Below, in pieces: positions 10,204 through 16,130 of a DNA stretch of 33,104 nt. Position 1 is the first letter of the stretch. Each line of letters begins with the position of its first letter. Where the stretch lies: the IMG/VR virus record IMGVR_UViG_2563366897_000003. One strand, written 5' to 3'. Below the pieces are notes generated by a model that saw only the letters and a list, made by a program, of their open reading frames with translations, was not told the DNA's origin and ran no database searches. The stretch is from a virus. Taxonomy: Duplodnaviria > Heunggongvirae > Uroviricota > Caudoviricetes. A program made the position numbers and the translations under genes.

Positions 10204-12180
10204 ATGGTGGAAAGAACCATGGCATTTAAACACTATGATGTTGTCAGGGCGGCATCGCCGTCAGACCTTGCGAAACGACTGACACAAAAACTGAAGGAGG
10301 GGTGGCAGCCATTTGGCAGTCCGGTGGCCATCACGCCTTATACCCTGATGCAGGCCATTGCGGCGGAAGGTGATGTCACCACACCTGTGGTGGTGAAGCC
10401 GTCGGATGGAGAAGGCGCAGTTATCAGCACCACCAGCAACCCGGAGTATTACTTTGTTGTTGCCCTGGCCGGGCAGTCAAACGGTATGGCGTATGGTGAA
10501 GGGCTTCCGCTGCCGGAGACATATGACCGTCCGGACCCGCGTATTAAACAGCTGGCGCGTCGCAGCACTGTCACGCCGGGTGGTGCGTCCTGTAACTACA
10601 ATGACATTATTCCTGCGGACCACTGCCTGCATGATGTTCAGGATTTGAGTAAGTTTTCACACCCGAAAGCCAGCGCAGCTCAGTATGGATGCGTGGGGCA
10701 GGGATTACATATCGCGAAGAAATTGTTGCCGTTTATTCCGGCGAATGCCGGTATTCTTCTGGTTCCGTGCTGCCGTGGTGGTTCTGCATTTTTGGCGGGC
10801 GATGAAGGTACCTTCAGCGAATCCACCGGCGCAAGCGAGACCTCGGCACGCTGGGGTGTTGATAAGCCACTGTACAAGGACCTGCTTACCCGTACTCAGG
10901 CCGCACTGAAGGCCAACCCTAAAAATATTCTGCTTGCAGTGGTCTGGATGCAGGGCGAGTTTGATTTGAAACAGGGTGCATACGCCACTCAGCCGGGGCT
11001 GTTTGATTCCATGGTGGAAAAATATCGTTCTGACCTGTCGGAATTCGGAGGTCAGTGTCTCGGGGGCTCTCCGTCATCGGTTCCCTGGATTTGTGGCGAC
11101 ACGACCTACTACTGGAAGCAGACTTATTCTTCGCAATACGATGCGGTGTATGGTGCATACAAGACGAAATCCGCAAAAAAAATCTTCTTTGTGCCGTTTA
11201 TGACGGATGAAAACGGGCGAAATGTGGGTACCAACGAGCCGTCAGAAGATCCGGATGTTGCGGATATTGGGTATTACGGAGCCGGTGGTCGAACGGACGC
11301 CAAAACCTGGACGACGGCCGACCGTAAAACGCATTTTGGATCATGGGCACGTCGTGGGATTATTTCCGACCGTCTGGCAACGGCGATTCTTGTGCATGCC
11401 GGGAGAAACGCTGAATTCATTACCGGAAAACAGCCTGATACGGTGAAGCCCACCGGACCTTCCGGTGAAGGTACGGAGAGAGAGCCGGAAGCCCCGGTCA
11501 GTAACCGAACCCTGATGAGTCTGCTGGCGTCCGGCGAAGACCTGGCATCACAGGGCTGGCGCTATTATCACAAACCGGCGAGCGGAGACAATGTTAACAA
11601 AAACATTGCTGAAGCGGTGGTCAGTGATGCGGGGGCTACGGGAGGTAAGGCCCTGCAACTGAATAAACCGGAAAACCACATCTGGTTTCTGGAGCATGAT
11701 GCAGCCGGACAGGGAGTGGAGTTACTGAAGAAGGGGGGACGTGTGAGCGTACGGTTTAAGTTGCCGGGTTCACTGGTGCCGAATCAGTTTGCCCTGGGCA
11801 TTTACTGGCAGTTGTCGTCCCTGCCGGAGGGAGTGACGCTGGCAGAGGAAGGCAACGACATGCTGATGTCCTTCTTTCTGCAGACGGATGCGACGAACCT
11901 GAACGCGATGCACCACAAGAAGCCGAATGCGAAGCTGGAAACGTTCGGGGTCTTTGATAACGGATGGCACACACTGGCTTTTGAGTTTGCCGGAAACAAC
12001 AGCATTCAGGTGACGCCGGTACTGGATGAGAAACGGGGGACGCCGTTCACACTGGTGAAATCTCCGGCATCAGGGGCGGCGGACAAACTGCAACTGACAG
12101 GCATATCAAAGGCGGCGACATATACGCTGCTGATTGACAGTGTGAAGGTGGAAGTGAACAACGCGGACATCGCGGCATGA
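10204..12180 (+). CDS. nanS: NanS-p-type prophage sialate O-acetylesterase (DUF1737 N-terminus plus SGNH/SASA esterase domain)
   Basis: 658 aa; N-terminus AFKHYDVVRAASPSDLAKRLTQKLKEGWQPFGSPVAIT is the DUF1737-type leader of EHEC prophage NanS-p/L0105-like proteins; sits between Q/tRNAs and the holin as in Stx-phage-like prophages. True start may be the ATG at 10219. Confidence 0.8.
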   Translation: MVERTMAFKHYDVVRAASPSDLAKRLTQKLKEGWQPFGSPVAITPYTLMQAIAAEGDVTTPVVVKPSDGEGAVISTTSNPEYYFVVALAGQSNGMAYGEGLPLPETYDRPDPRIKQLARRSTVTPGGASCNYNDIIPADHCLHDVQDLSKFSHPKASAAQYGCVGQGLHIAKKLLPFIPANAGILLVPCCRGGSAFLAGDEGTFSESTGASETSARWGVDKPLYKDLLTRTQAALKANPKNILLAVVWMQGEFDLKQGAYATQPGLFDSMVEKYRSDLSEFGGQCLGGSPSSVPWICGDTTYYWKQTYSSQYDAVYGAYKTKSAKKIFFVPFMTDENGRNVGTNEPSEDPDVADIGYYGAGGRTDAKTWTTADRKTHFGSWARRGIISDRLATAILVHAGRNAEFITGKQPDTVKPTGPSGEGTEREPEAPVSNRTLMSLLASGEDLASQGWRYYHKPASGDNVNKNIAEAVVSDAGATGGKALQLNKPENHIWFLEHDAAGQGVELLKKGGRVSVRFKLPGSLVPNQFALGIYWQLSSLPEGVTLAEEGNDMLMSFFLQTDATNLNAMHHKKPNAKLETFGVFDNGWHTLAFEFAGNNSIQVTPVLDEKRGTPFTLVKSPASGAADKLQLTGISKAATYTLLIDSVKVEVNNADIAA

Positions 12181-14004: not shown

Positions 14005-14538
14005 ATGAACACCAAAATCAAATACGGCCTGTCGGCTGCCGTTCTGGCGCTGATTGCCGCTGGTGCGCCTGCGCCTGACATTCTCGACCAGTTTCTGGAT
14101 GAAAAGGAAGGCAACCACACCACAGCATACCGTGATGGTGCAGGTATCTGGACCATCTGCCGTGGTGCCATCATGGTGGATGGCAAACCTGTCGTTCCGG
14201 GCATGAAGTTGTCGAAGGAAAAATGCGACCGGGTTAACGCCATTGAGCGTGATAAGGCGCTGGCATGGGTGGAGAAAAACATCAGAGTGCCATTGAGTGA
14301 ACCCCAGAAAGCGGGGATCGCGTCATTCTGTCCGTACAACATTGGCCCCGGTAAGTGTTTTCCGTCGACGTTTTATAAACGAATTAATGCAGGTGATCGC
14401 AGGGGAGCGTGTGAGGCGATTCGCTGGTGGATTAAGGACGGTGGCAGAGACTGCCGTATTCGTTCAAACAACTGCTACGGTCAGGTATCCCGTCGTGACC
14501 AGGAGAGCGCGCTGGCGTGCTGGGGTATCGACAGATAA
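14005..14538 (+). CDS. R: SAR endolysin (phage lysozyme R, R21-like)
   Basis: 177 aa; N-terminal signal-anchor-release segment (LSAAVLALIAAGAPAP) followed by a lysozyme catalytic region (EGNHTTAYRDGAGIWTICRG). Confidence 0.9.
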   Translation: MNTKIKYGLSAAVLALIAAGAPAPDILDQFLDEKEGNHTTAYRDGAGIWTICRGAIMVDGKPVVPGMKLSKEKCDRVNAIERDKALAWVEKNIRVPLSEPQKAGIASFCPYNIGPGKCFPSTFYKRINAGDRRGACEAIRWWIKDGGRDCRIRSNNCYGQVSRRDQESALACWGIDR

Positions 14539-14630: not shown

Positions 14631-14665
14631 AACCCCGTTTGTTGGCACCAAGCGGGGTTTTGTGT
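14631..14665. terminator. bidirectional intrinsic terminator between R and Rz
   Basis: CCCCGTTTG...CAAGCGGGG hairpin flanked by AAAAA upstream and TTTTGTGTTT downstream. Confidence 0.5.
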
Positions 14666-14694
14666 TTCTGACCTTGAGTAAGGCAAGGGAGAAC

Positions 14695-14877
14695 ATGGCG
14701 AAGTATAAACGAATTCTGTTGAGGTTGACTATGAAAAATGGCCTTGAACTGAAAGCGCCTGTAACTGATGACATCAGCAGAGCACTGGCTTTTGCCATTA
14801 AGTGGGTGGCGGTCGGTGTTGCTGTGTCCCCGATGCTGTATGGGCTGGCAAAACTGGTCATTGCGTTGAAATCGTGA
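14695..14877 (+). CDS. hypothetical small protein (60 aa) with hydrophobic C-terminus
   Basis: In-frame ATG inside track ORF 14662..14877; GGGAGAAC upstream; C-terminal predicted TM helix ([22 protein letters not shown]). Confidence 0.35.
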
Positions 14878-14891
14878 AGGGAGGATTAAGC

Positions 14892-15023
14892 ATGTCAGAC
14901 AAACTCATAACGCTGGCGAAGATCCTCTGTGTAATTGTCGGCATTTCATTTTCACTAATGCTGGTTGCTCTTTTTCTTTCCATGGCCTGGATGATGTTGT
15001 CTTCGTCGGGGTTGCTGGGGTGA
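14892..15023 (+). CDS. small single-TM membrane peptide (43 aa)
   Basis: AAGGGAGG SD 7 nt upstream of the ATG; [43 protein letters not shown]; stop overlaps the Rz start. Confidence 0.4.
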
Positions 15024-15493
15024 ACATAAACCGAATGCTTTCCGCGTTTATCGTTATTCTGCTGGTGGCCTGTGGTGCGCTGTGGATGGCAACAGACCAT
15101 TACCGTGATAACGCGATTACCTACAAAGCGCAGCGCGATAACAAAGCCAGTGAACTGAAGCTGGCGAACGCAACCATTACTGATATGCAGGTGCGCCAGC
15201 GCGATGTTGCTGCGCTCGATGCAAAATACTCGAGGGAATTAGCCGATGCGAGAGCTGAAAATGAAACTCTTCGCGCTGACGTTGCCGCTGGTCGTAAGCG
15301 CCTGCGGATCAACGCCACCTGTCCAGGCTCCGTGCGTGAAGCCCCCACCACCTCCGGCGTGGATAATGCAACCGGCCCCCAACTGGCAGACACCGTTACA
15401 CGGGATTATTTCACCCTCAGAGAGCGGCTGATGACGATGCACAAGCAACTGGAAGGGGCACAGGACTATATCCGCACTCAGTGCCTGAAATAA
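15020..15493 (+). CDS. Rz: Rz i-spanin
   Basis: 157 aa; N-terminal TM then [44 protein letters not shown]..., a close match to lambda Rz; start is the GTG at 15020 or the ATG at 15035. Confidence 0.85.
15261..15431 (+). CDS. Rz1: Rz1 o-spanin lipoprotein, embedded in the +1 frame of Rz
   Basis: [56 protein letters not shown]: lipobox LVVSAC and proline-rich core, very similar to lambda Rz1; lies entirely within Rz. Confidence 0.8.
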
Positions 15494-15803
15494 GTTTTGT
15501 TGATGCGCCGTATCGTCGCTATATTCCCTCATTAACAGAGACCGCAGCCCGACAGGGAGACTCCTCTGCGCGAGTGTGCGGGGATAATTAAAAACGATGC
15601 ACACCGGGTTTTTACCGCGTTAATGATTCGCGGGTTTATCCCGGTGCGATGGTGGAAGAAACAGGAAGCTGTATTACAGAAAGTGCTACTACTGTATCCC
15701 GATGCGATGTATGTAATGTGAGTCAGATAATGGCACAGGATGTGGTGATGTGGCAGTCTGGAACACAGGATATATTGTCAGAATAAGACCCGTAGGAATA
15801 AAA

Positions 15804-16130
15804 ATGAAAAGACGCCTTTTACTACTTTTTCTGTTATCTGTCCTGGCAGTGGGATGCTCGCAGCAAAAAGCTGATGAGCCCCGGCAATTAGTGACGGTGT
15901 ATCCACGATATCCGGAATATGCTGCAGCAAATTATATCAAGGGGCTGGTTGAGGTTAAGTTCGATATTGGTGCTGATGGGACTGTGACACGGATCGTTTT
16001 TCTCCGCTCAGAGCCTCATAATTTGTTTCGTGATGAAGTGGTGAAGGCCATGGCGAAATGGCGATTTGAAAAGAATCGCCCCTGTCAGGGAGTGAAGAGA
16101 CAATTTATCTTTACGCCGTCACGTCCTTGA
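15804..16130 (+). CDS. lipoprotein with a TonB C-terminal-like domain
   Basis: 108 aa from the ATG at 15804 (AGGA SD); signal peptide and lipobox LAVGCS (Ser at +2); YPRYPEYAAANYIKGLVEVKFDIGADGTVTRIVFLRSEPHNLFRDEVVKAMAKWRFE fits the TonB_C signature (YP..A....G.V.VKFD...DG.V...F..EV..AM..WR.E). Confidence 0.7.
   Translation: MKRRLLLLFLLSVLAVGCSQQKADEPRQLVTVYPRYPEYAAANYIKGLVEVKFDIGADGTVTRIVFLRSEPHNLFRDEVVKAMAKWRFEKNRPCQGVKRQFIFTPSRP

Follow-up and report, generated by a model that had tools for sequence, protein, structure and literature searches.

A prophage lipoprotein with a TonB C-terminal domain, a candidate decoy of TonB-dependent transport encoded between the lysis and packaging genes

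Introduction

Why would a phage encode a lipoprotein whose one recognisable domain is the C-terminal domain of TonB? This question is raised by a small gene in a 33,104-nucleotide stretch of DNA from a virus of the Caudoviricetes (IMG/VR record IMGVR_UViG_2563366897_000003); the whole stretch is called the window here. The gene lies on the plus strand between the spanin genes and cos, and we refer to its product of 108 residues as the TonB_C lipoprotein. Many phages, colicins, microcins and siderophore-linked antibiotics enter the cell through TonB-dependent transporters, which also take up iron and vitamin B12. We suggest that the gene product is almost certainly a lipoprotein with a TonB C-terminal domain and, far more tentatively, that it may act as a decoy in TonB-dependent transport.

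A lipoprotein precursor with a single TonB C-terminal domain

The features of the gene are as follows, with the evidence for each in brackets.
15804..16130, plus strand: coding sequence, stop codon included, of a lipoprotein precursor with a single TonB C-terminal domain (open reading frame list, sequence, and Pfam, NCBIfam and PDB matches)
15794..15797, plus strand: Shine-Dalgarno-like AGGA, 6 nt 5' of the ATG (direct sequence reading)
15804..15857, plus strand: lipoprotein signal peptide MKRRLLLLFLLSVLAVG, ending at the lipobox Cys18 (sequence and PROSITE-type lipobox pattern)
15858..15878, plus strand: short flexible tether of about residues 19-25 (SQQKADE), from the lipidated Cys to the TonB-aligned region (pLDDT, and the start of the TonB alignment at residues 23-26)
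15879..16112, plus strand: TonB C-terminal domain, residues 26-103, equivalent to E. coli TonB 153-230 (phmmer alignments, Foldseek and Pfam)

The match to the TonB domain is confirmed to be well beyond chance. The initial annotation had read a TonB C-terminal signature from the letters alone and had named a Pfam profile search and structure prediction as checks, and both bear this reading out. TonB_C (PF03544) matches residues 33-99 with an E-value of 7.3e-13 and 49.2 bits against a cut-off of 24.6, and the NCBIfam model tonB_Cterm (TIGR01352) scores 47.4 bits against a cut-off of 27.1. TonB_C is the only family found in the Pfam scan of the 108-residue protein, which gave no match to the Rz, Rz1 or Bor/Iss families. 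The equivalog models of full-length TonB (NCBIfam, PRK10819 type) reach 45-69 bits against cut-offs of 265-448, and they are matched over their C-terminal ~85 positions only. In phmmer searches the top matches among solved structures are those of E. coli TonB (1u07, 2gsk_B and 2grx_C, E ~1e-14). The alignment to TonB is ungapped, with residue n of the phage protein corresponding to TonB residue n+127, and identity to E. coli TonB 153-232 is ~38-40%. The YP motif is kept (Y36-P37), and the TonB residues Y163, F180, G186, F202, W213, Y215 and F230 correspond to Y36, F53, G59, F75, W86, F88 and F103 of the phage protein. The last strand is present as well (V97-P105, equivalent to TonB 224-232), and the equivalent of TonB 153-232 is retained as a whole.

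The predicted structure is that of a TonB domain. An AlphaFold2 model built from 16 family members has a mean predicted local distance difference test score (pLDDT) of 87.6, where a shallower alignment had given 61. The score is above 96 across the domain, from residue 31, and averages 58 for residues 11-20 and 83 for residues 21-30. The modelled fold is the helix, two-strand, helix, strand arrangement of the solved TonB C-terminal domains. Foldseek returns 1u07, 2gsk_B and 2grx_C as best matches, with probability 1.00 and a root mean square deviation (rmsd) of 0.9-1.5 Å, while TolA domains are much poorer; superposition on 2gsk_B gives an rmsd of 1.0 Å over 79 columns and on 2grx_C one of 0.9 Å. 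No significant match to the model was found in the viral structure library BFVD.

The reading frame begins with an ATG, and the sequence GGAAT.AAAATG at the gene start is kept between the two allele classes described below. The initial annotation had also proposed a signal peptide and a lipobox followed by Ser at position +2, and the sequence agrees. The N-terminus, MKRRLLLLFLLSVLAVGC, has a basic n-region, a hydrophobic core and an LAVG|C lipobox, and it satisfies the PROSITE-type lipoprotein pattern (MKRR-LLLLFLLSVL-AVG-C). Cys18 is invariant in an alignment of eight close and mid-distance relatives, and phage and chromosomal relatives alike keep the lipobox Cys. Position +2 is Ser19 here and S, T or A in relatives, with Asp in none of those examined. 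By the '+2 rule' of E. coli, a residue other than Asp after the lipobox Cys leads to sorting to the outer membrane by the Lol system. Because Ser is not a Lol-avoidance residue, the mature TonB_C lipoprotein is predicted to be sorted to the outer membrane and to be anchored there by its lipid.

Occurrence, alleles and selection

The protein of the window is common. An identical protein is found in phage 21 (CPT_21_73, 'TonB C-terminal domain protein'), in ev017, in Perceval and in three ECOR-derived phages. The same allele is present in 1225 of 5426 complete E. coli genomes, Nissle 1917 included, where it is annotated 'TonB family protein'; it is full length in 1221 of these 1225, and the protein collection has it on no fewer than 1000 contigs. 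A second allele with 70-72% protein identity is carried by four Stx1a phages, JLK-2012 and Lys8385Vzw, and by 415 of the 5426 genomes (full length in 414). Taken together, the two alleles thus occur in about one quarter to one third of the complete E. coli genomes. The sequence is therefore already known and not new, though it has an architecture of its own. The initial annotation knew of no description of such a gene, which holds only in part: the gene is already annotated in phage 21 and RefSeq, while a search of the full-text literature found no functional study of it.

Between the two alleles dS is ~1.4-1.5 and dN ~0.18, giving a dN/dS of 0.12, with similar values in the signal peptide and the domain. 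Among 75 copies of the first allele there are seven minor haplotypes, each with 1-3 changes, all of which are synonymous. This substitution pattern indicates that the gene is real and is maintained by purifying selection. Since dN/dS is low and polymorphism is synonymous only, the labels 'partial tonB-like' and 'TonB fragment' found in some records are misleading.

Position after the lysis cassette

In the window, the gene is flanked by the following features.
14005-14538, plus strand: endolysin (Pfam)
15020..15493, plus strand: Rz i-spanin gene (Pfam Phage_lysis, 161 bits)
15246-15431, plus strand: Rz1 o-spanin, embedded in Rz (Pfam Rz1, 71.6 bits)
15504..15690: conserved, apparently non-coding element upstream of the TonB_C gene (~90% identity between allele classes)
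17075..17623, plus strand: Nu1 small terminase (Pfam Phage_Nu1, 286 bits)
17553-19523: gpA terminase (Pfam)

Even without the TonB_C protein, the lysis cassette has all its parts. Alignment of the phage 21 genome puts its right end at ~16893 of the window, and hence cos ~760 bp 3' of the TonB_C gene. The position between Rz/Rz1 and cos that was initially assigned to the gene is supported by this genome end and by the Pfam matches around it. The accompanying statement that the gene sits in the bor slot has to be withdrawn, as bor or iss lies between Rz and the TonB_C gene, on the opposite strand, in most relatives. This arrangement is found in 45 of 73 IMG/VR loci that have the allele of the window, in phage 21, and in Nissle 1917, where the gene is annotated iss. 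The window has no bor, like the other 28 of the 73 loci, and we conclude that bor is deleted here.

Homology between the window and phage 21 resumes 10 bp past the Rz stop codon, at 15504, and this is where the conserved element begins. Over its first ~110 nt (15504-15612) it matches the lambda sequence immediately upstream of bor. The identity of ~90% between allele classes, with indels of 1 and 17 nt, compares with a dS of ~1.4 in the adjacent coding sequence, and the element is present in 432 phage records, lambda among them. It may be the promoter or regulatory region of bor, retained after bor was lost. A structured RNA upstream of the gene was considered and rejected: the element has no Rfam match, its fold z-score is merely -1.7, and its first ~110 nt are the lambda sequence upstream of bor. 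Nested inverted repeats, CACCGGG..CCCGGTG around CCGCG..CGCGG, are present in the element.

A wider family in phages and chromosomes

An exhaustive HMMER scan gave 2795 relatives, most of which are long TonB proteins. A subset of 107-133 residues aligns end to end with the protein of the window at 35-46% identity, and most of these have a lipobox. Such short members are encoded by the Klebsiella phage ST13-OXA48phi12.4 and on dozens of prophage contigs of IMG/VR. Eight divergent loci were mapped, and in these the gene comes next after those for holin, endolysin and spanins, in the same orientation, and precedes the terminase genes. The proteins at this position have 39-45% identity to that of the window, and the synteny is constant even though the types of endolysin and terminase differ among the eight loci; the position is shared by lambdoid, Klebsiella and environmental prophages. 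Phages have repeatedly kept a TonB_C lipoprotein at the junction of lysis and packaging genes.

Other members lie outside prophages: by lacZ/lacI in Raoultella ornithinolytica, by araBA in an Erwinia species and in an accessory region of R. planticola. Because these are ordinary chromosomal neighbourhoods, the TonB_C lipoprotein architecture exists in bacteria independently of phages. A separate case is P0139, a lipoprotein of 152 residues whose C-terminal domain is much nearer to genuine TonB, last strand included; this suggests that lipid-anchored TonB tips arose more than once. PHROG 34172, with 251 positions, is matched over its C-terminal TonB-like part, and some phages may therefore encode full-length TonB-like proteins.

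One family label needs comment. PHROG 1267, which matches the TonB_C lipoprotein end to end, is named 'Rz-like spanin'. A role as o-spanin is rejected, since canonical Rz and Rz1 are present in the window and an o-spanin-like lipoprotein of their own is found in all eight of the divergent loci.

In four relatives a small DUF2560-like protein is encoded 3' of the TonB_C gene (L102, 5373-5621; L107, 5739-5984; L108, 7315-7560; L124, 6901-7146). Its N-termini in L102 and L107, MSETVEIT and MAETTEVT, have a faint resemblance to a Ton box, and no homologue of this neighbour was found in the window. A phage partner that bears a Ton box was also rejected for the window, where the pattern [DE]T[ILMV][TIVLA]V does not occur in any frame of the 13-20 kb region.

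A candidate decoy of TonB or its Ton boxes

We hypothesize that the TonB_C lipoprotein may be a decoy of TonB or of the Ton boxes of its transporters. By analogy with known systems this is the best-supported mechanism, and we put it forward as a possibility rather than an expectation. The phage protein has neither the N-terminal transmembrane helix nor the proline-rich spacer of TonB; an 18-residue lipoprotein signal and a linker of ~7 residues are found instead. From the absence of anchor and spacer we infer that it cannot be energised by ExbB/ExbD. Its tether would hold the protein on the inner leaflet of the outer membrane, at the site where the transporters expose their Ton boxes. There it could bind Ton boxes by strand pairing, or it could pair with the C-terminal domain of TonB itself. 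Either way it would be a non-productive competitor of TonB and would damp TonB-dependent transport. Agents that require energised TonB would then be blocked, such as phages of the T1/phi80 type, group B colicins, several microcins and sideromycins. If the protein is made with the lysis and late genes, the producing cell would be protected during lytic growth.

In the complexes with BtuB and FhuA (PDB 2GSK and 2GRX), the last strand of TonB is said to pair with the Ton box. Two precedents bear on the proposal. As cited in PMC9841981, Howard et al. 2001 reported that iron import through the transporters is inhibited when a periplasmic TonB domain is overexpressed. The Llp protein of T5, a lipoprotein of the outer membrane, acts on FhuA from the periplasm and inactivates it, and cells are thereby made resistant to T5, phi80, colicin M and albomycin (PMC9586334). 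A bolder form of the proposal, which we regard as doubtful, is that the gene encodes a phage-borne dominant-negative TonB that switches off all TonB-energised transport across the outer membrane whenever it is made. Carrier cells would then be protected broadly, against TonB-dependent phages and group B colicins as well as microcins and siderophore-antibiotic conjugates.

The time of synthesis is important for this proposal. The gene is most probably co-transcribed with the lysis genes from the late promoter, after induction, because it lies on the same strand right after the spanin genes in divergent prophages, and because of the layout in the relative L104, where no promoter-like site precedes the TonB_C gene and a strong intrinsic terminator follows it immediately. 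In two other relatives, L093 and L108, promoter-like sites with 9 of 12 matches lie just upstream, and this number is within chance expectation. In the window, one further feature lies 3' of the gene.
16223..16249, plus strand: perfect 9-bp G+C-rich hairpin, ~95 nt past the stop codon (RNA fold)
The hairpin has no adjacent U-run, with a U-rich tract at a distance, and was not called by the terminator scan; it is possibly a weak terminator. The best sigma-70-like site of the region is on the minus strand, inside the TonB_C coding sequence (15931-15958; TTAACC-16 nt-TATAAT with TG, 10 of 12). It points to where bor sits in relatives, and may represent either an antisense promoter or a coincidental match.

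Several points weigh against a decoy. A resident prophage can exclude superinfecting phages only if the gene is expressed in the lysogen. On the plus strand of the window, a consensus scan upstream of the gene found no sigma-70 promoter with at least 9 of 12 matches, and in a relaxed scan the best site had 8 of 12; the best Fur-box match there, 11 of 19, is at background level. These scans thus give no support for a promoter of its own, as a moron would have, or for iron regulation. Low-level expression in the lysogen may occur, but it is doubtful because no convincing promoter was found and because the gene is syntenic with the lysis/late operon. If expression is late only, the benefit of exclusion is less obvious. 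Some contact residues also differ. Q160, R166 and R158 of TonB are implicated in contacts with transporters, and they are replaced by Y33 (L in the second allele), Y39 and T31, respectively. Then there is the cost to the host, since an effective constitutive decoy would cripple siderophore uptake; Nissle 1917 depends on TonB-dependent iron uptake, yet it carries the gene. The chromosomal homologues in Raoultella and Erwinia may point to an envelope role of the family that is unrelated to phage defence, and the PADLOC defence models gave no match for the TonB_C lipoprotein.

The iron cost might be offset by SitABCD, a TonB-independent importer of Fe and Mn that is encoded on the same element. 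The phage 21-type prophage at icd carries sitABCD together with iss/bor and the TonB_C gene, both in phage 21 (L090, 12968-16417) and in Nissle 1917 (L091, 8461-11910). The presence of SitABCD and a putative TonB antagonist on one element may be more than coincidence.

If a decoy role is true, it would represent a new and very general principle of exclusion, in which the energy transducer of the host is mimicked and not a single receptor blocked. It would have a bearing on the host range of therapeutic phages, on competition by bacteriocins, as the gene is present in the probiotic Nissle 1917, and on susceptibility to sideromycins. The gene also provides a clean test case, with a small protein, a classical phage (phage 21) and standard assays. 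Since it is very common and the decoy hypothesis is directly testable in a classical phage, we consider its appeal moderate to high. Should the protein prove to be a lysis-stage factor or an envelope lipoprotein instead, this would still define a function for a family that is now automatically annotated as 'TonB family protein'.

Alternative explanations

The protein could be a general envelope lipoprotein whose TonB_C fold binds a partner other than a Ton box, such as peptidoglycan, another outer-membrane protein or a substrate, and which the phage carries as host-derived fitness cargo. We regard this as rather unlikely. A family of TonB_C lipoproteins of 107-133 residues does exist, and its members in Raoultella ornithinolytica, R. 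planticola and Erwinia are not in prophages. The family has residues of its own that are unlike those of TonB, for example Tyr at the position of R166. TonB-like C-terminal domains can bind partners other than Ton boxes, as FusB with ferredoxin (PDB 9hi3), which is among the structural matches, illustrates. However, the nearest structures by far are genuine TonB domains in complexes with transporters, and a housekeeping role would leave unexplained why the gene is strictly linked to the ends of lysis cassettes in many unrelated prophages.

A second explanation is a role at the stage of lysis or release. Made together with holin, endolysin and spanins, the protein would act at the outer membrane at the end of infection, either by switching off transporter receptors so that progeny are spared from binding to debris, as with T5 Llp, or by aiding or timing the breakdown of the envelope. 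The place directly after the spanins, on the same strand, is constant among varied types of endolysin and terminase, the layout of L104 (terminator after the gene, no promoter-like site before it) would suit such a role, and the end-to-end match to PHROG 1267 carries a spanin label. Exclusion proteins are also described as preventing adsorption to fragments left after lysis (T5 Llp paper, PMC9586334). We nevertheless judge this role fairly improbable. Every locus examined has a separate o-spanin-type lipoprotein, with canonical Rz and Rz1 in the window, and the protein has no similarity to the Rz or Rz1 families. In L093 and L108 promoter-like sites are found just upstream of the gene. Moreover, the J tip of phage 21 is only 55-57% identical to the tips of lambda and 434 and gives no lead to the receptor of the carrier.

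A third explanation is a lipoprotein of lysogenic conversion or virulence in the manner of Bor/Iss, which would act at the interface of host and bacterium (serum or immune factors) and not on TonB-dependent transport. The gene adjoins iss/bor in the 45 loci mentioned above and in Nissle 1917, the phage 21-type prophage is rich in fitness cargo, as sitABCD indicates, and the gene is common in human-associated E. coli. Against this, the protein has no similarity to Bor/Iss, its TonB_C fold implies a periplasmic partner, there is no sign of surface exposure and the scans of the window found no promoter of its own. On balance this explanation is quite improbable.

That the gene is a decaying, functionless fragment of a captured tonB is scarcely credible: it is shorter than TonB and is named 'partial tonB-like' or 'TonB fragment' in ev017, Perceval and EDL933-derived names, but it has gained a proper lipoprotein signal as well as a ribosome-binding site, it has homologues of the same architecture at 35-46% identity, it is intact in nearly all genomes that carry it (1221 of 1225 for the first allele), and the dN/dS of 0.12 over a dS of ~1.4, with only synonymous polymorphism within the allele, contradicts decay.

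Comparison with known systems

The TonB_C lipoprotein shares with the C-terminal domain of E. coli TonB (~150-239; 1U07, 2GSK and 2GRX) the Pfam family, the fold, the YP motif, conserved aromatic residues and the edge strand at the C-terminus. The phage protein stops directly behind the third strand, so that TonB residues 233-239 have no counterpart in it. Unlike TonB it has a predicted lipid anchor, with the outer and not the inner membrane as its predicted location, and is not coupled to ExbB/ExbD. It is thus a member of the TonB_C family by its domain, and has neither the anchor nor the spacer of the TonB energy transducers. The engineered periplasmic TonB fragments of Howard, Herrmann, Stratilo and Braun (2001, J Bacteriol 183:5885) are likewise uncoupled from the energy source, and they were reported to inhibit the import of iron (as cited in PMC9841981). 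Those fragments are artificial, soluble and overexpressed, whereas the phage protein is natural, predicted to be lipid-anchored and only 40% identical.

Llp of T5 and Cor of phi80, N15 and T1-like phages are also small phage lipoproteins that inactivate a TonB-dependent transporter. The likeness is a functional analogy, as they have no relation in sequence or fold to the TonB_C lipoprotein, for which Pfam finds only TonB_C. Llp and Cor are specific for FhuA, whereas a protein with a TonB domain would be expected to act more generally, on Ton boxes or on TonB. The novelty lies in the architecture around the TonB domain and, if the decoy role is true, in a new route by which a phage lipoprotein disables TonB-dependent transporters.

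Bor of lambda and Iss of E. coli are also encoded by accessory lipoprotein genes in the Rz-to-cos region of lambdoid prophages, often as immediate neighbours of the TonB_C gene. They differ in their unrelated sequence, opposite strand and separate slot, and most relatives carry both genes. The chromosomal TonB_C lipoproteins of Enterobacterales, such as those of Raoultella and Erwinia, have the same lipobox, short linker and one TonB_C domain in 107-133 residues, with 35-46% identity. Unlike the gene of the window, they are found outside prophages.

Further observations on the locus

Two small hydrophobic open reading frames without a Pfam match lie between the endolysin and Rz, at 14662-14877 (71 residues) and 14802-15023 (73 residues). 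The N-terminus of the endolysin resembles a signal-anchor-release (SAR) sequence, and no holin was found upstream among the open reading frames inspected. One of the two frames may be a holin or pinholin in an unusual position.

On the minus strand between the TonB_C gene and cos, there are open reading frames at 16494-16814 and 16253-16606, neither of which has a Pfam match. In one of them an internal Met gives a start that resembles a signal peptide, MKIRNILAISLATSSFSCLA. The minus strand also has promoter-like sites at 17016-16977. The annotations of phage 21 and RefSeq show small plus-strand open reading frames in this region instead, and phages with the second allele have a DUF3950 gene at the equivalent position on the minus strand.

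Upstream of the lysis cassette, at 10204-12180 on the plus strand, an open reading frame of 658 residues combines DUF1737, SASA (sialate O-acetylesterase) and DUF6645. It is an esterase of the NanS-p type, and it has the same place as in Stx phages.

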